Positions 2,268 to 12,190 of a DNA stretch of 13,484 nucleotides are shown piece after piece. Location: contig JBDHJS010000088.1 of the NCBI GenBank assembly GCA_039586795.1, forward strand, positions 1 through 13,484, read 5' to 3'. Below the pieces are notes generated by a model. That model was not told the origin of the DNA. It did no database searches and saw nothing but the letters and a program-made list of their open reading frames with translations. The first letter of the stretch is position 1. Each line of letters opens with the position of its first letter. The position numbers and the translations under genes were made by a program. This DNA comes from Gemmatimonadota bacterium. GTDB taxonomy: Bacteria > Gemmatimonadota > Gemmatimonadetes > Palauibacterales > KS3-K002.

Positions 2268-3743
2268 GTGAACCGTCGAAGCCTTATAGTGCTCGCTCTG
2301 CTCTGCGGATCGCCACAAGCGGCCGCGGCCCAGCAGGCGACGGAACGGAGCTACGACCCGTCCCGGCAATACGGAGTCGACGAGCTTAGATCGGACTTCG
2401 CCGTCCTGCGCGGCGCACTCGAGGAAGGCCACGCCGGGCTCTATCGCTATTCCAGTGTGGCGGAGATCGACGCCGTCTTCGATGCGACCGAGAACCGCAT
2501 CACTGGTCCGATGACGGAAGCCGAGTTCCTGCGCCTCCTAGCGCCGGCCATCGCCGCCGCCAACGACGGGCACACCCGCTGGAACAGCTCGCCGGATTAC
2601 GCCGATTACCTGGAATCGCGGCCGATCTCCCTACCATTCAAGCTCAGGTTCCTGGATGGCGTTGCCTACGTGCACCGCAACTACAGCGACCTGTCCGACG
2701 ACCTGCTCGGCGCGCGTTTGATCTCCATCAACGGCGTGGCAATCGACGAACTCGTGGGCAGGCTGCTGCCGCTCATGTCTTCTGACGGGCGCATCGAGAC
2801 GTCCAAGTACCGAACGCTGGAAAGCACGACGCTCTTCGGCCGTATGTACAGCCTGCTCAACGGACTCACCACCCGGTTCGAGCTCGCCTACGTCGATCCA
2901 CAAACCGGACGCGCCGAGACCGTGACCGTCGATGGGCTGACCGGTGCCGAATTGACCGAGCGATTCAACAGCCGCTACCCGGAAGCGGCAGTGAGCGGAC
3001 CGGCGATCGAACTCGAGTATCGCGATGACATAGCGATCCTCACCGTGCGCACCTTTGCCGGCAGCGTCTACCAGCGGGAAGGCATCGACTACCCGCAGTT
3101 TCTCGAGGACAGCTTCGAGGAGTTCCAGCGGAGAGGCGTCCGGGATCTTATCATCGACGTGCGAGACAACGGTGGCGGTTCAGATGTGTTCGGAAGACTT
3201 CTCGTTGCCTACCTGATCGATGAGGACTTCGACTACTACCGCTCGCTGGAGGTCAACGACAACCAGTTCGACTTCCTCGAACACACGAACGCCGGCAATG
3301 AGAGCATGCCCGAGGAACGGCTTCGCGAGAACGATCATGGGACCTACGACCTGCTCGGACACCCCAACCTCGGCGTTCAGAGCAACCTGGATCCCACGTT
3401 CGAAGGGAATGCGTACGTCCTGATGAACGGCAGGAGCTTCTCAGCAACCGGCGAGTTCACGTCGGTGGCTCACTTCCATGGTGTGGCGCGCTTCGCCGGC
3501 GAAGAGAGTGGCGCGGGATACTACGGCAACACCTCGGGCTTCGTCCCGACGCTCACACTGCCCAACACGAGAATCCGCGTCGGCATTCCGATGGTCCGCT
3601 ACACCATGGCCGTGTCGGGCTACACGCCGGTGGACCGAGGGTTGATCCCCGACATCCCCATTGACCCGACGATAGAGGATGTACTGTCGGGGCGCGACGT
3701 CGAACTGGAGTCCCTGGTCGAATTCATCAACGAGAATAGGTGA
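2268..3743 (+). CDS. Secreted S41-family peptidase (tail-specific protease-like, with PDZ-like segment)
   Basis: GTG start after AGGAGG, and a signal peptide ending AAA-Q. Motifs include H-x-GLYRY, DGHT, a PDZ-like LISINGV, LIIDVRDNGGGS, the catalytic-Ser region SFSATGEF, GEESG and RGLIPDIPI. Confidence 0.9.
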   Translation: MNRRSLIVLALLCGSPQAAAAQQATERSYDPSRQYGVDELRSDFAVLRGALEEGHAGLYRYSSVAEIDAVFDATENRITGPMTEAEFLRLLAPAIAAANDGHTRWNSSPDYADYLESRPISLPFKLRFLDGVAYVHRNYSDLSDDLLGARLISINGVAIDELVGRLLPLMSSDGRIETSKYRTLESTTLFGRMYSLLNGLTTRFELAYVDPQTGRAETVTVDGLTGAELTERFNSRYPEAAVSGPAIELEYRDDIAILTVRTFAGSVYQREGIDYPQFLEDSFEEFQRRGVRDLIIDVRDNGGGSDVFGRLLVAYLIDEDFDYYRSLEVNDNQFDFLEHTNAGNESMPEERLRENDHGTYDLLGHPNLGVQSNLDPTFEGNAYVLMNGRSFSATGEFTSVAHFHGVARFAGEESGAGYYGNTSGFVPTLTLPNTRIRVGIPMVRYTMAVSGYTPVDRGLIPDIPIDPTIEDVLSGRDVELESLVEFINENR

Positions 3744-3749
3744 CCTGCT

Positions 3750-4211
3750 ATGAATCCTGCGCACCTCCATCTGGCGATCAATCACTTCCCCGTCATCGGC
3801 CTGGTGTTCGGCGCCGCCATCCTGGCCGCGGCGATGATCCGGCGCAGCGACGAGCTGGCCCGGGTCGGCGCCATCCTCATGATCTTCGTCGCACTGATCA
3901 CGATCCCCGTCTACCTAACGGGCGAGCCGGCGGAGGAAATCGTCGAGCACCTGCCGGGCGCCTCCGAGGATATCCTCCATGCCCACGAGGATATCGCGGT
4001 TTGGGCGATGATCCTCATCGAGATCATCGGCGCGGCGGCACTCGTGGGACTCGTCGCGTTCCGCGACAAGAGTACGCTGCCCCGCTGGTTCGTTTCGAGC
4101 TTGCTGGTTTCCAGCTTGATCGGTGTTGCTCTGGTCGGTTGGACGTCATCCCTGGGCGGTCAGATCATGCACCCGGAAGCGCGGCCGGACTTCGAAGTCG
4201 CGGAAGAGTAG
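3750..4211 (+). CDS. DUF2231-like four-helix membrane protein
   Basis: N-terminal AHLHLAINHFP, central TGEPAEE...HAHE and C-terminal LGGQIMHPE, with four hydrophobic segments. Starts 6 nt after the S41 stop. Confidence 0.75.
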   Translation: MNPAHLHLAINHFPVIGLVFGAAILAAAMIRRSDELARVGAILMIFVALITIPVYLTGEPAEEIVEHLPGASEDILHAHEDIAVWAMILIEIIGAAALVGLVAFRDKSTLPRWFVSSLLVSSLIGVALVGWTSSLGGQIMHPEARPDFEVAEE

Positions 4212-4258
4212 CCCAGAATAGAAAGGGCCACCGAACGGTGGCCCTCGAGCTTTCTGGG
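4212..4258. terminator. Intrinsic terminator hairpin between convergent genes
   Basis: Perfect inverted repeat AGGGCCACCG-AA-CGGTGGCCCT (4224-4245), followed on the minus strand by TTCTATTCT. Outer CCCAGAA/TTCTGGG can extend the stem. Probably terminates the kinase operon and may be bidirectional. Confidence 0.8.
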
Positions 4259-4265
4259 GACTCGG

Positions 4266-4565
4266 CTAGAACGGCCAGTAGAGCAGCGACGCCGGTCCGC
4301 CGACACCCATCAGTCCTGCCACGATCGTCCACAAGACAACAAGCAAGAAGATCAGCCAGATGCTGCCGATCAGCATGCCGAGCCTGCGGTTCGTCGTCTC
4401 CACCCGCTTGACCAGCTGCGCCAGGTGAGCGAGCTGACTCACGGCGGCGCTGGCCGACTTCTTGTCACCGCCCAGCTCGGCCAGGCAGACCTTACACGAT
4501 ACGTTCTCTGCCGGATTCACCTCCCCGCAAGCGGGGCATATGACGAGCGTGTCTCTCTTTGCCAT
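4266..4565 (-). CDS. Small zinc-ribbon membrane protein
   Basis: CPACGEVNPAENVSCKVC zinc ribbon, a helical linker, basic RR and then a long hydrophobic C-terminal segment. Starts 27 nt after the upstream stop and ends just before the terminator. Confidence 0.75.
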   Translation of the reverse strand: MAKRDTLVICPACGEVNPAENVSCKVCLAELGGDKKSASAAVSQLAHLAQLVKRVETTNRRLGMLIGSIWLIFLLVVLWTIVAGLMGVGGPASLLYWPF

Positions 4566-4592
4566 CCTCGATGAACCGTGGTTGCGTCGCTG

Positions 4593-6814
4593 CTATTGCC
4601 GGACTGTGAGCTTGTAGGTCAGTGGCACAGCGGGACAGCTGTCCTCGCACCAGACCCTGAGGACGTAGGGGCCGCCCGCGCCGATATTCCCCGTGTCCGT
4701 TTCTATGCCCGTCGTATCGGTCGCCGCTCCGGTCAACTGACAGATCGCGATGATGTCGGTGGGCGGGTTTCCGTTCCCGCTGCACACATAGAAGTCGATG
4801 TTGGCCACTTGCTGCCATTCCGCCGTCGCCGTCACATCGGCGCCCGCGGTCATGAAGAAGTAGAAGAAGTTGTTGTCGATGGGGCTCGTCTTCGCCGGGT
4901 CGATGCTGAGGAAGACCTCGAACGGTAGGCCGATGGAGTCCGCCGTGGTGAGCGGGAAGGTATCGTTGGGCTCGAACGGGTCTGCGACCGTACCGCCGCC
5001 GGTGAACGTATCGATCGACGGCACGCTGTCCCGGTCCGGGCTGCCATCGGCGAGCAGGTTGTAGAACAGTAGCTGACCAACTTCCGAACCGGCGCCCACC
5101 ACCGCCCGCAGCGAGTCGGTCCACGACGTATCGGCGAACAGCACCGTGCCGTTCGGGAAGAAGATCCGCGTGCTGTCGGTAAACGTATGCACCTGCGACC
5201 CGCGGACGATCACCGTGTCCCCGAAGTCTCCGGACAGCGTGGAGAACGTACCGTAGAACCGCTCCTCGGTTATCGTCGTCGGCGCCAGCGCATCCGAGAT
5301 CGTGCTGTCCGGGTTCGGCAGCGCGGGAGCGACGAGGTCCACGCTCACCGTCGCCGTCCCGATGTCTCTCGCAAAGGCTCGGCCCGTCGCAGCGGTTACG
5401 ATCTCGATCACCGTTGCATCGCTTGTCTGGAAGTCGGCCGTATAGGTCGCGATCGTTGTATCGCCCCGGGTGTCCGTCACGGTCACGTCATAGTCGAGCG
5501 AGTCGCCCATCACCGGCGTCCCGGGGTCGCTGATCGCCGCCACATAAGTGCTGATCTCGAGATCGATGGAGTCGCGCAGCACGGCCCGCGGCAGCGTCGG
5601 CTGGGCCAGCGTCACGTACACCCATGCCTGCCCCGTATCCGCGAACAGCACCTCGCCTGCCGGACCGTCGATGATCGCTACGATAGACGAGTCGCTGGAT
5701 TCCGTGGTCGCCAGCAACTCCGCCTGCGGGGCGCCGTTCTTCGTCACGTCGACTCCGACGCCGACGCTGTCGGTGACCAGCGTGTCCGTATCGGACCCGG
5801 TGTAGAACGACTGGAGGTCCAGGCTGGTCACGTAGGTGGTAACCGGAACGATCATCGAGTCGGTATTGATCGGCACGACCGGATCGTCGAAGGTGACGCT
5901 CACCACCGCGGTCCCCACACCGTCGAACGTGCCGATGCCTGCCGCGGAATCCGTTATACGAACGGCACTCGTATTCGACGACGTCCACGTGGCACTCGTT
6001 ATCGGCGTCGTGTCGTTGCCCGCCTCGATGACGATCCCGCTGAACTGCACCGAGTCGGTGACCAGCGTGTCTCCGTTGACGTTGAGGTGGTCCGAGCCGG
6101 AGCCGGGCACCAGCGACTCGACTTTCAGCTCGATGATCAGGCTCTCGACGTTGACGTTGATGGAGTCGCTGAGCAGGCCACCGCCGGGTATCGCCGGCTG
6201 GGTCATCTGGACGACCAGGTTCGCCTGGCCGACGCCCACCAGCGCCGCCTCATCGTCAGCCAGGCTGGGCAGATTCGGGTGATGGTCAGGCCCCCAGACG
6301 GAACGGTCGCGCCGTTCAGACGCACCTGGGCCACGACCTGCACCGTGTCTTCGACCAGCGCGTTAGCCGAGTCGACTGGAGTGTCAGTGACGCTCGAGCG
6401 AAGTGACAGCTCCACTTCGTATTCGCTGACGCTAACGTCCATGAAGGCCGTCAGCGGCTCGGCACGATTCTCGAGGGACGGCCTCTCGAACGTGACCGTG
6501 ACCCGGGCGCTCCCAACTTGCTTCAACAACGCTTGCCCCGTACTGGAGTTCAGGATCTCTACCACGTCGGAATTATCGGAAGTGAACTCGAGCCCCGACG
6601 ACGGGACCTCGGAACCGCCGCTCATCACGCGACCCTCGAACATGACCTGGTCACCTACCAGAGTGTCGCCGCTCGCGATGAAACCAGACGAAGCAGGGTC
6701 GATGCCGATCTGCGCAGAGAGCGTTCCCGAACCGCTCTCGGTAGACGTCTTCTCACAGCTGACGGTGAGCAAGACCGAAACAAGTATCGCGAAGACCTGG
6801 ACTCTGTATCTCAC
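4593..6814 (-). pseudogene. Large multi-Ig-like (Big_2-type) repeat lipoprotein with C-terminal PPC-like domain, interrupted by a frameshift at about 6276-6280
   Basis: GTG start at 6814 overlaps the upstream stop (GTGA), giving MRYRVQVFAILVSVLLTVS-C20 (lipoprotein-like signal). The frame of track ORF 6203..6985 is sensible up to GGLTIT; the protein then continues in the frame of ORF 4593..6239 (PNLPSLADDEAALVGVGQA). Five ~95-aa repeats span both halves. It could be a true pseudogene or an assembly error. Confidence 0.8.
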
Positions 6815-7845
6815 GACTTGACCCGTAAGAAAGTGATCTCGGTGTAGCCGTTCCGGGAAACACGAATTCCATCGACAGGCACCACCTGCAATGAGAGCCC
6901 CGGATCCCCTTCCATGTCTTCCGGCGACGGCGGGACCCGAGAGTTCTTGGCCGCGATCATTCCATCGATCAGTCCGTACAGCCACAGCGCGCCCGCCACA
7001 GCTGCACCGACCACGACGTAGTTCGTCTCGTTGATCGTGGCGTTCACGTCCACGGGATAGCTACAGGACGTCTCGCTACAACTAGGTGGGCCCGTGGCAG
7101 TGAAGGCCACGTCGGACGTATCCTCCGACGTCAGCAGCACGCCCACACCAATCGCCGCTGCCGAGCCGACCAGAATTGCGATGCCCTTGGCCGTGTTGCC
7201 CACGTACAGCTCCCCGCCGCCCGGGATGATCCCCAGCGCCGCCGCGGTGCCCACGCTCTTACCCGCGATGAGCGAATCCGGCGGCTCCTCCACCCCCGGA
7301 TCATCGACCGCCACCGGCCGCGTCACGCTGACGTCGACGGTGCCCTCCGGCCCTTCCTCGCTCCGCGCGATGACGCGGGTTTCGCCGATGCCCTTCGCCG
7401 CGATCGTACCATCGGCCGACACCTTGGCGATGCTGGTATCCTGCACGCTCCACTCGAACGCGATATCCGGGATCTGCGTGCTGTCCGGCCCCAACGCCTG
7501 AGCTTGCAGGACCACCGTATCCCCGATCGTCAGGTCGAGCTCGGCCGGCGTGATCATGACCCAAGTGACCGGAAGCTCGACGCAGGCCTCGCTCAGCCCG
7601 TTGAGCAGGTCCACCGAGGCACCCGCCGACAGCAGCGTTCGTACAGGCTCACCCTGCACACGAAACGCGATGCAGTTCTCCTGCGCCAACGCGATGATAC
7701 GGTCGTCCGAGAAGACGCCCGACTCCAGCAGTCGGACGATTTGGTCCAGCGTGTAGGGCTGCACGTCTTGGCCATTAGCCCGCGCCGGCCAAGCGCAACT
7801 GATGAAGACACAGAGGAGGGAGATGAGGTAGATGGCCCGTCGCAT
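6811..7845 (-). CDS. Secreted protein: N-terminal helical domain, Ig-like Big_2 domain, and TM2/DUF5683-like hydrophobic hairpin region
   Basis: Signal peptide MRRAIYLISLLCVFISCAWPARA. Big_2 signature ITPAELDLTIGDTVVLQA...FEWSVQDTSIAKVSADGTIAAKGIGETRVIA. Motif KSVGTAAALGIIPGGGELYVG followed by two hydrophobic helices ending LWLYGLIDG. An alternative start is GTG at 7899. Confidence 0.8.
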   Translation of the reverse strand: MRRAIYLISLLCVFISCAWPARANGQDVQPYTLDQIVRLLESGVFSDDRIIALAQENCIAFRVQGEPVRTLLSAGASVDLLNGLSEACVELPVTWVMITPAELDLTIGDTVVLQAQALGPDSTQIPDIAFEWSVQDTSIAKVSADGTIAAKGIGETRVIARSEEGPEGTVDVSVTRPVAVDDPGVEEPPDSLIAGKSVGTAAALGIIPGGGELYVGNTAKGIAILVGSAAAIGVGVLLTSEDTSDVAFTATGPPSCSETSCSYPVDVNATINETNYVVVGAAVAGALWLYGLIDGMIAAKNSRVPPSPEDMEGDPGLSLQVVPVDGIRVSRNGYTEITFLRVKS

Positions 7846-7902
7846 CACGTCGGTTGACGGGTTACCGATTGGGTCGCGCAGTCCGTTCTCTAACCGCACA
7901 GG

Positions 7903-9780
7903 TTATGGGCAGCGGGTTTGATCGTCACGGCGACAGAATTCCTTCGCCTTGTCTATCTTCTCACGGACGCTAGTCAGCATCGCTTCGAGTGTGTCGGTGT
8001 TCCGATAGTCGATGATCGCATCGGTGGCCAGGCGCTCGATCTGTCTATAGAGTTCGGCCGCATCATAGTAGCGATACGTCGTGAAGAGCAGGACATCGCC
8101 CTGCTGCATCAGGCTGTCCAACCGGGCGAGTAGGTCCGCCGGCACAAGCGGCCGGCTGTCCACGACGCGCTCCGGTGTCGACCGCGGCGCTGGAACTTCT
8201 TCGAGCATCACCTCGAGTATCGCGTTCTCACCAGCCTCAATGTCTACATCGCGCGTGAATGTGTTGAAGCCTGCGGCGCTGATACTAATCGTCTGAGCGC
8301 CGGGCGTCACATCGAACTCCCGGTTGTCGCCGATCAGTTCGTCGATGCCCGCGCCCGCGATCTCCAAACGCGCTCCCTGCGGCAGGTCCCCAGTAATGGT
8401 CAGCCGACCGGTTTCGGGTATGGCCGCTGCCCCATTGACGCCGGGGGCGAGGACTTCCCCGCCGGGCTCTGCCGGGTTGAGCGCTTCGCCGCTTTCCCCA
8501 TCAGACGTCAATTCGGTCGCAACCCCCGCGCCGAACCTATCGCGCCACGAACCTTCGAAGCCGACGCCCTGCGTGATCGCATAGACGGCGCCGACGGAGA
8601 TCGCAACGACGGCGACGGCCAGCGCGCCCATCGCGTAACGATGGAAGCGACCCCCCGAAGCTTCCGGGCGATCCCGTTCTCGTCCGTTGGCGATCGCCAA
8701 CTTCTCCGTCGTCGGCGGATCACTGGACCGCCGAAACGGATGCTCGCCCGGCTGCGGCGTGTTGACTCGACGATCGCCCTTCTCGTCCAGCCACGGTACG
8801 TACACCGGTGGACCCTTCCCTTCGACGGCGAGCCGGAAATCCTCCATCGAGTCGAAACGGTCCGACGGATCCTTCGACAGGGCCTTGTGAATTGCGTCCC
8901 GAAGTGGCAGCGGTGTTTCCGGCCTCACCGCGTTGAGCGGTCGCGGCGGCGTGAACAGATGATGGTAGAGCAGCTCCTTCATCGAGTCGGAGACGAACAC
9001 CGGCTGCCCGGTCAACAACTGATAGCCGACGGCGGCAAGCGAGTACTGATCCGCACGACCGTCCACCATACGGCCCTCGCACTGCTCCGGCGCCATGTAC
9101 TGCGGCGTCCCGATCACCGCGCCCGTCTCAGTGAGGTGCGTGCTTCCCACCAGCGCCTTGGCGATTCCGAAGTCCGTCAGGTGAACGTGACCTTCCGCAT
9201 CGATCAGGATATTGGCGGGTTTGACGTCGCGGTGAATCACGCCGCGCTTGTGCGCGTAGCCCAGACCGGCCGCCGCCTCCAGCAGAGTCCGCTCCACTTC
9301 CTGGAGCGACGGAATCCGGTTCGGCCCCATTTCTGCCAACGAACGCCCGGGCACGAAGTGCATCGTGTAGAAGGCTAGGTTCTGGCTGTGATGGACACGA
9401 TAGACCGGTATGATGTTCGGATGATGGAGCTTCGCCACCATCCGCGCCTCGCGCTTGAAGCGCTCGATCAGCCCCTCGTCGAACATCAGGTTGGGAGGCA
9501 GTACCTTGATGGCGACCAGGCGATCCAGCCCGACTTCCCGTGCCAAGAACACCGAGCCCATGCCCCCGCGGCCCAGTTCGTGGTGCACCTCGTATTCCCC
9601 GGTGGTCGCCATCTGAAGCGCCTGGCGCAGGTCGGTGGGGAATCCGTTGGCGTAGCGAGCCCCGGCCAGCCCGGGTATGGGCGTGCCGCACTCCCCGCAG
9701 AACTTGCTACCTACGGGTAGCGGAGTGGAGCAGCGGTCACATACCACGTTGTCCATCTGAGCTGACGGGTGCTCGATCAC
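7903..9780 (-). CDS. Membrane-anchored Hanks-type Ser/Thr protein kinase with N-terminal zinc ribbon, PEGA-like domain and C-terminal helical domain
   Basis: Zinc ribbon CDRC...KFCGECG. All catalytic motifs are intact: LGRGGMGSV, VAIK, RFKREA, HRDVKPAN, TDFG, GTPQYMAPE, DQYSL. TM segment ALAVAVVAISVGAVYAI; PEGA-like GRLTITGDLPQGARLEI...VTPGAQTISISAAGF. Start is GTG 9780 (after AGAAGG) or ATG 9756. Confidence 0.93.
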   Translation of the reverse strand: MIEHPSAQMDNVVCDRCSTPLPVGSKFCGECGTPIPGLAGARYANGFPTDLRQALQMATTGEYEVHHELGRGGMGSVFLAREVGLDRLVAIKVLPPNLMFDEGLIERFKREARMVAKLHHPNIIPVYRVHHSQNLAFYTMHFVPGRSLAEMGPNRIPSLQEVERTLLEAAAGLGYAHKRGVIHRDVKPANILIDAEGHVHLTDFGIAKALVGSTHLTETGAVIGTPQYMAPEQCEGRMVDGRADQYSLAAVGYQLLTGQPVFVSDSMKELLYHHLFTPPRPLNAVRPETPLPLRDAIHKALSKDPSDRFDSMEDFRLAVEGKGPPVYVPWLDEKGDRRVNTPQPGEHPFRRSSDPPTTEKLAIANGRERDRPEASGGRFHRYAMGALAVAVVAISVGAVYAITQGVGFEGSWRDRFGAGVATELTSDGESGEALNPAEPGGEVLAPGVNGAAAIPETGRLTITGDLPQGARLEIAGAGIDELIGDNREFDVTPGAQTISISAAGFNTFTRDVDIEAGENAILEVMLEEVPAPRSTPERVVDSRPLVPADLLARLDSLMQQGDVLLFTTYRYYDAAELYRQIERLATDAIIDYRNTDTLEAMLTSVREKIDKAKEFCRRDDQTRCP

Positions 9781-9884
9781 TACCTTCTCTTTTCCGGTTA
9801 GGGCACGGAAGCTACTGCCGGAGTGAGACTTAGACAATATGAGTCCATCGGGTCTCACTCACAGACCGGTCAGGGAACATTAGT

Positions 9885-10060: not shown

Positions 10061-12190
10061 ATGGCGACACGCACCAAGCCTGCCGGCAACAAAGACCGTT
10101 ACATGGGGCTGGACCCGGAGCAGCTGATCGGGTTCTACCGCACCATCTACCTGTCGCGCCGACTTGACGACCGGGAGATGCAGCTCAAGCGGCAGAACCG
10201 AATCTTCTTCCAGATCAGCGGCGCCGGGCACGAGGCGATCGGCGTCGCCGCCGGGACGGCACTCAAAACCGGCTACGATTGGTTCTATACTTACTATCGC
10301 GACCGGGCGCTCTGCCTCCAGCTGGGCGTCACACCTTACGAGATGTTGTTGGAGGGCGTCGGGGCCGAGGAGGATCCCGCATCCGGCGGCCGTCAGATGC
10401 CGAGCCACTGGGGGCACAAGGAATTCAACATCGTTACGTCCTCCAGCCCGACCGGCTCCCAGTTCCTGAACAGCGTCGGCTGCGCCGAAGCGGGTCATCG
10501 CTTCCAACTCATCGAAGCGCTCAAGGACCGAACGGACCTCTTCACGGATGACGAAGTCGTCCTGGTCACCTCCGGCGATGGCACCACCAGTCAGGGCGAG
10601 TTCTGGGAGGCGATCAACACGGCGGCGACGCTCAAGCTGCCGGTCATCTTCCTGATCGAGGACAACAAGTACGCCATCTCGGTGCCGATCGAGGTGCAGA
10701 CGCCAGGCGGCAGCATCTCGAAGTGCATGAGCGGCATTCCCGGGCTGTACATCGAGGAAGTCGACGGCTGCGACCCCATTGCGAGCTACGACGTCATGTC
10801 GCGCGCCGTCGACTACTGTCGGGCCCGCAAAGGGCCGGCGCTGATCCATGCGCACGTTATCCGGCCGTACTCACACTCGATGTCCGACGACGAGCGCCTC
10901 TATCGTTCGCCGGAGGAGCGAGAGGAAGAAGCGAAGCGTGATCCGCTCACGACGTTCGCCCAGTTCCTCGTCGACGAATCGATCCTTTCCGACAAAGAGC
11001 TCGAGAAGCTGAAGGACGGGGTGGACGCCGAGATCGAGGAAGCGACGGATCGCGCCTTAGAGGCGCCACAGCCTCCACCCGAATCGGCGATGCTCTACGT
11101 CTACTCACCGGATGTCGACCCGACGACCGACGAGTTTGCGACGGAACCGGAGTTCGGCGACACCGACCCGACGACGATGGTCGATCTGTTGAACGCCTGC
11201 ATGCGCGATGAGATGGAGCGCAACCCGGCGATCCTCGTATTCGGCGAAGACGTCGCCGACGCCAGCCGCGAAGATGCGCTGGACGAGGTCAAAGGCAAAG
11301 GCGGCGTGTTCAAGGTCACCTGGGGCCTGCAAAAGAGATTCGGTTCCGCGCGCGTTTACAATTCGCCGTTGGCGGAAGCGAACATCGTCGGCCGCGCCGT
11401 CGGCCTCGCGCAGCGCGGACTGAAGCCGGTGGTCGAGATCCAGTTCTTCGACTACATCTGGACCGCCATGATGCAGCTGCGCGATGAGGTGCCCCTCATC
11501 CGCTGGCGCTCCAACAACGCTTTCAGCTGCCCGATGGTCGTACGCGTGACCTACGGCGGCTACCTAAAGGGCGGAGCGATCTACCACTCGCAGACCGGCG
11601 CCAGCATCTTCACGCACACGCCCGGCATGCGAGTGGTCTGCCCGGCGACCGCCGAAGATGCCAATGGGCTGCTCCGCACGGCGATCCGCTGCGACGACCC
11701 TGTACTGTTCCTCGAGCACAAGCACCTCTACCGCCAGACCTACAACAAAGGCCGCTATCCCGGACCCGAGTATATGATCCCGTTCGGCCGCGGCCGGCTC
11801 GTTCGAGAAGGTTCGGATCTCACCATCATCACCTATGGCGCCACCGTCGAGCGCTCGTTCCGCGCCGTCAAGGCGGCGGCAGAGGAATCTGGAATCGAAG
11901 CCGAGGTCATCGACCTGCGCACGCTCAGCCCGTTCGACATGGAGATGATCGCCGAGTCGGTCAAGAAGACCAACAAAGTGATCGTCGTCTACGAGGACTC
12001 GCTGTCGTGGGGTTACGGTGCCGAGATCGCCGCCCGCATCGCCGACGAGCTCTTCGAATGGCTGGACGGCCCGGTGAAGCGCGTCGCCGCAACGGACACC
12101 TTCGTCGCCTACGCTCCGGACGTCGAGGATTACATCTTGCCGCAGGTGGAGGATGTGAAGGCGGCGATTGTCGAGTTGGCGGGCTACTGA
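10061..12190 (+). CDS. 2-oxoacid dehydrogenase E1, fused alpha-beta subunit (probably branched-chain 2-oxoacid dehydrogenase type)
   Basis: Alpha domain: [16 protein letters not shown], the ThDP motif [15 protein letters not shown]...IEDN, and HSMSD. Beta domain: [33 protein letters not shown] and IDLRTLSP. Substrate specificity is inferred. Confidence 0.95.

Follow-up and report, generated by a model that had tools for sequence, protein, structure and literature searches.

The window analysed here is one whole contig of 13,484 nucleotides (nt; JBDHJS010000088.1) from a Gemmatimonadota genome of 4.68 Mb, with 62% GC and a completeness of 97.8%; its DNA is also present in sediment metagenomes. 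It carries an operon of four minus-strand genes, which encode a receptor Ser/Thr kinase of the Hanks type, a secreted protein with a hydrophobic hairpin (the hairpin protein), a lipoprotein with multiple immunoglobulin (Ig)-like domains and a small Zn-ribbon membrane protein. An earlier note, made from the sequence alone, had suggested that these genes form a signalling system across the cell envelope. The operon is real and conserved in the family, and the helical C-terminal tip of the kinase (Khel) was predicted to bind an N-terminal domain of the hairpin protein (Ndom). The layout given in the note was borne out by the open reading frame (ORF) coordinates: the kinase stop codon and the hairpin gene ATG at 7845 are separated by 57 nt (3 nt to a longer GTG start), the hairpin and lipoprotein genes overlap with a GTGA at 6811-6814, and 27 nt lie between the lipoprotein and the Zn-ribbon genes. 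Domain scans, hydropathy and models also agreed with the domain make-up predicted for the four proteins, the Zn-ribbon match of the kinase being weak. The features are compiled in Table 1.

Table 1. Features of the operon and its predicted boundaries; positions refer to the window.
Feature	Position	Strand	Remarks
Intrinsic terminator-like hairpin	4223..4246	-	between operon and convergent DUF2231-like gene
Zn-ribbon protein with single transmembrane segment, 99 amino acids	4266..4565	-	family-restricted
Acidic multi-Ig lipoprotein, 749 amino acids when intact	4593..6814	-	frameshifted here by 28-nt deletion near 6278
Hairpin protein, 344 amino acids	6811..7845	-	signal peptide, Ndom, Big_2, linker, membrane hairpin domain
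DUF5683/Borrelia-P13-like domain	6814..7269	-	likely outer-membrane anchor
Ndom, predicted "socket"	7573..7767	-	four-helix domain, residues 27-91, two invariant Cys
Receptor Hanks-type Ser/Thr kinase, 617 amino acids	7903..9756	-	domain scan, hydropathy, motifs
Khel, TPR-like helical C-terminal tip, predicted "plug"	7906..8169	-	kinase residues 530-617, two invariant Cys
Sigma70-type promoter candidate	9809..9837	-	-35 TTGTCT 9837-9832, 17 nt, -10 TAGCTT 9814-9809

The kinase is composed of a CxxC...CxxC Zn ribbon (residues 6-23), an RD-type catalytic domain (55-302), a single transmembrane (TM) segment (373-400), a linker, a PEGA-like beta-sandwich (about 450-520) and the helical tip, with a topology predicted from sequence. 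The catalytic domain matched Pkinase with an E value of 1e-45, and its motifs GxGGMG, VAIK, HRDVKPAN, DFG and APE are all intact. The PEGA match had an E value of 0.01 in the window protein and was above the cut-off in three orthologs. Khel was described as disulfide-capped, and its sequence resemblance to TPR is weak (E 1e-4). The start codon, which had been placed at 9780, had to be revised to ATG 9756 as the most likely one, because this ATG aligns in 10/10 orthologous regions. GTG 9858 was rejected as start because a conserved promoter candidate falls within that ORF. An identity as PASTA kinase was rejected as well; no PASTA match was found, and the NF033483 score was 270.8 compared to a cut-off of 450.

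In the hairpin protein, a cleavable-looking signal peptide precedes Ndom. The four helices of Ndom and the Big_2 domain were modelled confidently by AlphaFold2 (predicted local distance difference test, pLDDT, mostly >85), and the Big_2 domain matched LigA by structure with a Z score of 13.9 and a root-mean-square deviation of 1.6 Å over 85 residues. No sequence relative of Ndom was found in Pfam, NCBIfam or the PDB, the best E value against solved structures being 0.2. No fold was assigned to Ndom and the hairpin domain, because structure searches with them were filled by Big_2 and the Atlas gave 0.77 for Ndom. Besides a PGGG motif, the hairpin domain has two hydrophobic helices, which were seen by Kyte-Doolittle analysis, and a beta tail at its C-terminus; the helices are connected through a long beta-hairpin in which two Cys are invariant. 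Its Atlas features scored 0.92 to a DUF5683 cluster, 44% of whose members carry DUF5683, and 0.90 to a P13 cluster, with 167 shared features. The window protein itself did not match the DUF5683 and DUF6677 profiles at E <= 1; weak matches were obtained with orthologs, namely to DUF5683 in 3/19 (best E 0.006) and to DUF6677 in 11/19 (best E 0.002). Of 1.84 billion representative proteins, 639 matched a profile of the domain at E <= 0.001. Phe or Trp is the C-terminal residue in 84 of the best 150 relatives, and among 37 relatives that were scanned some scored above the cut-off of DUF5683 or DUF6677; a TPR, caspase or SPOR domain is present in others, the TPR and SPOR domains being N-terminal. 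Because the hairpin domain resembles DUF5683 and Borrelia P13, it probably resides in the outer membrane. A phylum-wide search with the full hairpin-protein alignment was uninformative, as 378/401 genomes matched, almost all via Big_2; none of the 150 matches listed in it was a full-length hairpin protein from outside the family.

The lipoprotein had been described as a single ORF of about 740 amino acids (aa), a figure that spans a break. The region 6814-4593 comprises 2222 nt, the frame switches near 6278, and two ORFs, of 203 and 548 aa, take the place of one. A contig of run X3 (one contig, depth 3.4) is otherwise identical to the window over 6238-6440 and carries 28 extra bases after 6278; in contigs of four further runs, none spanned the break. 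Furthermore, an intact protein of 749 aa, encoded on a contig of 14,903 nt, matches the first half with 99.4% identity (180 aa) and the second half with 99.6% (548 aa). As an intact, near-identical copy exists elsewhere, the break is particular to this strain or assembly, and the comparison indicates that the gene is intact at the species level and broken in this assembly.

The lipobox Cys was found in 15/15 orthologs checked, at position 20 (position 21 in one), and the protein is acidic, with 95 Asp and Glu versus 27 Lys and Arg residues. A model of the intact ortholog (pLDDT 84) contains both the five Ig-like repeats and the tip domain that had been predicted, and in addition one further beta-sandwich that precedes the tip. 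The number of Ig domains varies between four and five, and in one family genome (G013) the lipoprotein is replaced. The repeats had no Big_2 match in Pfam, only a weak one to a NUP210-like Ig domain, and a Foldseek search with the model retrieved generic tandem-Ig stalks only. The tip domain has an EPND motif and four Cys, and no useful Pfam or PDB sequence match was obtained for it; a PPC-like or IPT-like character is tentative. PF26918 is annotated on two relatives of the lipoprotein. A hypervariable adhesin tip among orthologs was ruled out, because the tip is 37-66% identical to that of the window and has 19 invariant columns. The Zn-ribbon protein, with 62-74% identity in orthologous loci, is the most conserved non-catalytic part of the operon.

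For the prediction of a complex, the window Ndom and the window Khel were used, each with an alignment of 29 rows in the same order. The complex reached a score of 0.75 (0.67, 0.79, 0.75), compared to 0.01 for the best of three controls. The score mark is reached by 116/157 solved complexes and 2/215 mismatched pairs, a calibration that is only rough here because custom alignments were used. The runs shared at least 96% of the contacts, and the partner had a pLDDT of at least 90. The predicted interface involves Y31, Q35, R38, L39, S42, V44, F45, R49 and L53 of the hairpin protein and Q552, V555, T559, T560, R562, Y564 and D565 of the kinase. Recall of a similar complex by the predictor is unlikely, because Ndom has no sequence relative with a solved structure. 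An interface between the kinase ectodomain and the 6811-7845 protein, for which the earlier note had proposed a complex prediction, was predicted with confidence. The model supports binding, short of demonstrating it, and we regard it as quite probable that Khel binds Ndom.

Synteny was compared in 28 loci from 23 genomes of the same family, which had been chosen for having a match, plus one named contig. The conserved gene order that had been proposed was recovered: the kinase gene is directly followed by the hairpin gene in 22/23 genomes, the order kinase-hairpin-lipoprotein was present in 20, and all four genes are contiguous in 12, most of the others stopping at a contig edge. In the exception, G016, scaffold gaps break the locus, yet a Khel match lies directly upstream. 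The Zn-ribbon gene follows 14/18 complete lipoprotein ends. The second half of the lipoprotein had matches in 20/30 genomes of the family and in 0/30 of the sister family; the completeness of the ten family genomes that lack a match is 65-93%, and in two of these (G005, G016) the kinase-tip and hairpin part of the operon is present. Identity to the window was 80-97% for the catalytic domain, 26-40% for Khel, 42-58% for the hairpin protein (32% in G013) and, with two partial or unrelated matches set aside, 34-58% for the lipoprotein. The idea of a variable lipoprotein next to two conserved genes did not hold among these orthologs; in the distant loci L039, L095 and L102 the lipoprotein is swapped for unrelated ones. 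Hanks-kinase ORFs number 51 in the genome of the window, whereas Khel, Ndom and the hairpin domain each occur there only once; Big_2 ORFs number 8.

Some variants of the locus were observed in addition. In 8/14 loci a second kinase gene on the same strand follows the Zn-ribbon gene (e.g. L023:4942-6075). This kinase mostly has 377-390 aa and a hydrophobic C-terminus; it is absent from the window, and a close ortholog is lacking in the genome of the window as well (best identity 39-44%). A variant operon at L039:3024-10405 consists of a divergent FHA-GAF-HD gene, a kinase, a hairpin protein, a PKD-type lipoprotein and a second Ndom-Big_2 protein.

Khel and Ndom travel together in the sequences compared, though the proteins that carry them otherwise differ. 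Ndom was detected in 48/301 genomes of the class, including 15/15 in the family, and Khel in 20 of the same 301, all 20 being Ndom-positive. Two of 37 non-orthologous Ndom matches lie directly after a Khel gene. In one case (L102) a kinase-Khel gene precedes an Ndom-hairpin gene, and in the other (L131:4379-6618, minus strand) a CHAT-TM-Khel gene precedes an Ndom-DUF3108 gene, whose product is identical to a protein of Longimicrobium terrae (P0252). Two others of the 37 are unlinked from a Khel kinase encoded elsewhere in the genome. A separate search yielded three loci (L126-128) with kinase-Khel followed by Ndom-trypsin, and at L130 a rhomboid-TPR-Khel gene is followed by an Ndom-PEGA-glycine zipper gene. 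From metagenomes 19 Ndom-trypsin loci were taken, of which three without the N-terminus and one without upstream DNA were left out; Khel was directly upstream in 13/15, which are close kin.

Another 20 of the 37 Ndoms follow a different protein, which has its own Cys-capped helical tip and, by hydropathy, one TM segment in 18/20; its N-terminus had a weak JAB-like Pfam match in 4/8 that were scanned. Homology of this tip to Khel was not detected (hhalign probability 0.5%), and the two were therefore treated as different plugs. Position 49 of Ndom is Arg in 27/29 Khel-linked and Glu in 18/20 JAB-linked cases. Tentatively, and with somewhat more doubt than belief, Ndom may be a new interchangeable periplasmic socket on many outer-envelope proteins and part of a phylum-wide mix-and-match code of trans-envelope signalling, in which an Arg/Glu switch would set the plug fit. 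The sockets would be carried by P13-like hairpin, barrel-like, trypsin and DUF3108 proteins and the disulfide-capped helical plugs by enzymes of the inner membrane (Hanks kinases, CHAT proteases, rhomboids and JAB-like proteins), and the window operon would be the version with a kinase and an Ig antenna.

The JAB-like pairing is the wider of the two and occurs in several Gemmatimonadota families (L133-L140, L144-L148, L150, L152-L156, L162); in these 20 loci the JAB-like-TM-helical tip gene is directly upstream of genes for Glu-type Ndom-Big_1-(TPR)-barrel-like proteins. At L151, L157, L160, L161 and L163 the gene upstream of Ndom-Big_1-(TPR)-barrel-like proteins encodes a secreted fn3-repeat protein. 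Three secreted proteins (L158:4987-5745, L159:1211-2029 and L164:4941-5714) are fusions of Ndom to TonB_C and lack an adjoining partner gene. At L143:4300-9879 (minus strand) a small Arg-type Ndom protein is encoded downstream of a P-loop GTPase-like gene cluster; the upstream gene might encode a divergent plug, and neither NCBIfam nor PADLOC gave a match.

From these results the following mechanism can be proposed. Khel of the inner-membrane-type kinase would bind Ndom of the secreted hairpin protein in the periplasm, as predicted and supported by gene context. The DUF5683/P13-like domain may insert into the outer membrane as an oligomer and present several Ndom sockets on Big_2 spacers. These sockets would capture kinase tips on their flexible PEGA-containing arms; since a hairpin oligomer would have several Ndoms, several kinases would cluster, and their RD kinase domains could trans-autophosphorylate. 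The lipoprotein stalk might associate with the hairpin oligomer and supply the stimulus, be it contact, a ligand or envelope strain. This association is suggested by gene adjacency (the GTGA overlap and Big_2 neighbours), and that the lipoprotein is a sensor bound to the hairpin protein seems a little less than an even bet. The Zn-ribbon membrane protein might, as a guess, be an adaptor or substrate on the cytoplasmic side, the kinase having a similar Zn ribbon. In this general form, i.e., a kinase tip, Ndom and hairpin anchor that couple a surface Ig lipoprotein to phosphorylation, envelope-spanning signalling has about an even chance of being correct. The gene order and the predicted interface speak for this view of the earlier note, and the variability of the lipoprotein among orthologs does not.

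Several observations weigh against this proposal. Interface columns of Khel are less conserved than the rest (entropy 2.49 vs 2.15, 91% of random sets being as good), and those of Ndom are only mildly more conserved (13% of random sets as good), so interface conservation failed as added support for binding on the Khel side. The count of co-occurring Khel and Ndom is partly circular, because, of the four Khel genomes from outside the family, two had contributed to the query alignment, and kin do not count as independent cases. No Khel gene lies upstream in 2/15 metagenome Ndom-trypsin loci or before the Ndom of G158 and G165, and 13/37 non-orthologous Ndoms have no adjacent gene for a helical partner (fn3 proteins precede 5 of them, 3 are fused to TonB_C, and 5 belong to neither group). 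The AlphaFold2 model of the C-terminal domain of the hairpin protein, a helix, a long beta-hairpin, a helix and a beta tail, is of low confidence (pLDDT 30-68); furthermore, the window protein ends in Ser, and a terminal aromatic residue is absent in its family. Kinase-less TM-PEGA-Khel genes occur at L034:2163-3092 and L035:8959-9804, convergent on second lipoprotein copies; these may be decoys or tethers. The window operon contains neither an FHA or phosphatase gene nor any other gene for an output. Finally, only 9/30 distant hairpin loci have a same-strand kinase within 6 kb.

The latter loci bear on a further explanation, according to which the Khel-Ndom link is real and serves mainly for the assembly or monitoring of a surface structure; the lipoprotein would be displayed or exported through a channel formed by the hairpin oligomer, and the kinase would report the state of assembly instead of an outside signal. 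The hairpin domain was found in 31/301 genomes of the phylum, a tally that includes the unpublished genome G209. In the 30 distant loci a Big_2 ORF lies within 500 nt in 21/30 (16 on the same strand, 5 convergent), as compared to the 8 Big_2 ORFs in the entire genome of the window; distances are between stop-to-stop frames, and kin among the loci are not independent. Comparison with the kinase count indicates that the pair of hairpin protein and Ig lipoprotein is wider than the kinase link, and one locus (L064) has the pair and no kinase. A channel would also be consistent with P13, which is reported to be a porin-active homo-oligomer of about 300 kDa (PMC6879480). However, the five convergent Big_2 genes, which are not co-transcribed with the hairpin gene, do not fit well, and the kinase is nearly always attached in this family, so that this explanation is regarded as rather improbable.

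Surveillance against attacks on the envelope, in which the module would sense damage or invaders such as phages or predators and fire a kinase or protease response, is unlikely. The cytoplasmic modules with Ndom partners (CHAT, JAB, rhomboid, kinase) and trypsin on the secreted side would suit such a role, and the analogous TagQR-PpkA pathway senses membrane damage (PMC13713981). Yet the operon is single-copy and in most family members is found at the same chromosomal position, next to a housekeeping dehydrogenase gene, in contrast to mobile defence islands, and no gene for a type VI secretion system (T6SS) sheath was found. PADLOC matches fell only within the kinase domain and the linker next to it, and a defence-system reading based on them was dropped.

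It is very unlikely that Khel-Ndom is a structural tether that joins the two membranes or positions the stalk, with the kinase domain being optional. The kinase-less TM-PEGA-Khel genes, which in G004 and G014 neighbour a second copy of the hairpin or lipoprotein gene, and the three Ndom-TonB_C fusions would be expected of a tether; against it, no other part is as conserved as the catalytic domain, and enzymes (CHAT, rhomboid) are present in other Khel proteins too. That all parts are inner-membrane or periplasmic, with an ordinary two-helix anchor and a lipoprotein facing the periplasm, is highly improbable, because the two hydrophobic helices, a weak TM2 match in one hairpin-protein member and the missing terminal aromatic residue are opposed by the cleavable-looking signal peptide, the P13/DUF5683 likeness, the aromatic C-termini of most relatives and the barrel-like beta tails in which, by inspection, other Ndom proteins end.

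The boundaries of the operon were also characterized. A candidate promoter had been placed 5′ of the operon, and the putative TTGTCT-17-TAGCTT element agrees with this, as a pair of a TTG-type -35 and a TA---T -10 box with a spacer of 16-18 nt recurs in 10/10 aligned orthologous upstream regions; the pattern was drawn up after inspection of the alignment. It sits back to back with the promoter of a divergent gene for a fused alpha-beta 2-oxoacid dehydrogenase E1 (window 10061-12190, plus strand), which has its own conserved promoter-like motifs and is the usual upstream neighbour of the operon, adjoining it in most family loci. At the other end, the hairpin that had been called a strong terminator folds well (z = -5.56), but the terminator scan of the window was overall not above chance (5 found vs 8.5 expected). 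RNA runs contained only 5-8% of the sequence words. The remaining window encodes, on the plus strand, tRNA-Ala(TGC) (2160-2232), an S41 peptidase (2268-3743) and a DUF2231-like membrane protein (3750-4211), and only the DUF2231-like gene recurs near the operon end in relatives. Elsewhere in the same genome, seven kinase matches lie in tandem on one strand (G000:C74:12193-29283), and the two closest kinase paralogs (G000:C23:69444-75477) each lie opposite a small convergent gene whose secreted product has a beta-rich and barrel-like C-terminus.

The absence of a named system of this composition, which had been claimed, holds for the literature searched, but a trans-envelope pathway with a Hanks kinase is already known. 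In the TagQ/TagR/TagST-PpkA-PppA-Fha1 pathway of the Pseudomonas aeruginosa H1-T6SS, an outer-membrane lipoprotein and a periplasmic protein likely dimerise the kinase, and PpkA activation is described as driven by dimerisation (PMC13713981). To that extent, the two systems have the same kinds of parts, namely a lipoprotein associated with the outer membrane, a protein in between and a Hanks kinase that sits in the inner membrane and has a periplasmic domain, and the signal reaches the kinase by binding to its periplasmic part, as is predicted here. In contrast, shared non-kinase domains were not found, the intermediate is membrane-anchored by a DUF5683/P13-like domain, the lipoprotein is an Ig stalk of 749 aa (TagQ has 31.7 kDa; PMC13713981), and the coupling pair is modular and also occurs on proteases. 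No Pfam or NCBIfam name beyond Big_2 was obtained for the lipoprotein or the middle protein, which are set apart from TagQ and TagR by domain make-up, not by direct alignment. The window has no gene for an ABC transporter (TagST), a PppA phosphatase or Fha; FHA had 5 matches elsewhere in the genome, and FHA genes lie beside the kinase in L039, L114 and L116. The T6SS sheath gene VipB (PF05943), the one marker used, was not found in the 97.8% complete genome. Taken together, the operon works like TagQR-PpkA, yet it is not a member of that pathway.

Similarly, Acidovorax citrulli has a TssW-PpkA-Fha axis, in which components of the inner membrane, a Hanks kinase among them, are contacted by an anchor in the outer membrane (PMC12607579). 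An outer-membrane anchor is likely present here as well, whereas the TssW axis positions a T6SS. With Borrelia P13, DUF5683 and DUF6677 the hairpin protein has in common that hydrophobic helices come after a PG(G/L)G motif and that the C-terminus forms a beta tail, a likeness that rests on language-model features and weak Pfam matches; it differs in carrying Ndom, Big_2 and a long Cys-capped beta-hairpin. [quoted passage not shown]

The operon also resembles PknB/Stk1 PASTA kinases in having a Hanks RD kinase with one TM segment and an extracytoplasmic sensor, and differs in the absence of PASTA. In cell-surface signalling, an inner-membrane transducer is bound by a periplasmic signalling domain at the N-terminus of an outer-membrane protein. 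Ndom would correspond to this signalling domain, but the output here is a kinase, and the four operon proteins had no Pfam or NCBIfam match to TonB-dependent receptors, FecR or extracytoplasmic function (ECF) sigma factors. The Leptospira Lig lipoproteins likewise have a lipobox and tandem Ig-like domains, whereas the repeats of the lipoprotein described here do not match Big_2; Lig genes are not known to occur in a kinase operon. A description of the gene set or the domain pair was not found in the literature searched, most subscription journals and supplements being outside its coverage, nor was a paper on what Gemmatimonadota receptor kinases sense.

Khel-Ndom is thus seen as a previously unnamed, modular coupling pair in a variant of trans-envelope Hanks-kinase signalling. 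Both partners are small (each <90 residues) and have an interface predicted at residue level, which makes the pair amenable to simple binding assays. The protease version is carried by a named and cultured species, Longimicrobium terrae. If the proposal is true, it would describe a route across the diderm envelope that is built from parts unrelated to TagQR-PpkA and ECF cell-surface signalling. Such coupling would extend to proteases, and DUF5683/P13-like proteins would gain a first role as outer-membrane signalling anchors, in a phylum whose members carry dozens of receptor kinases.

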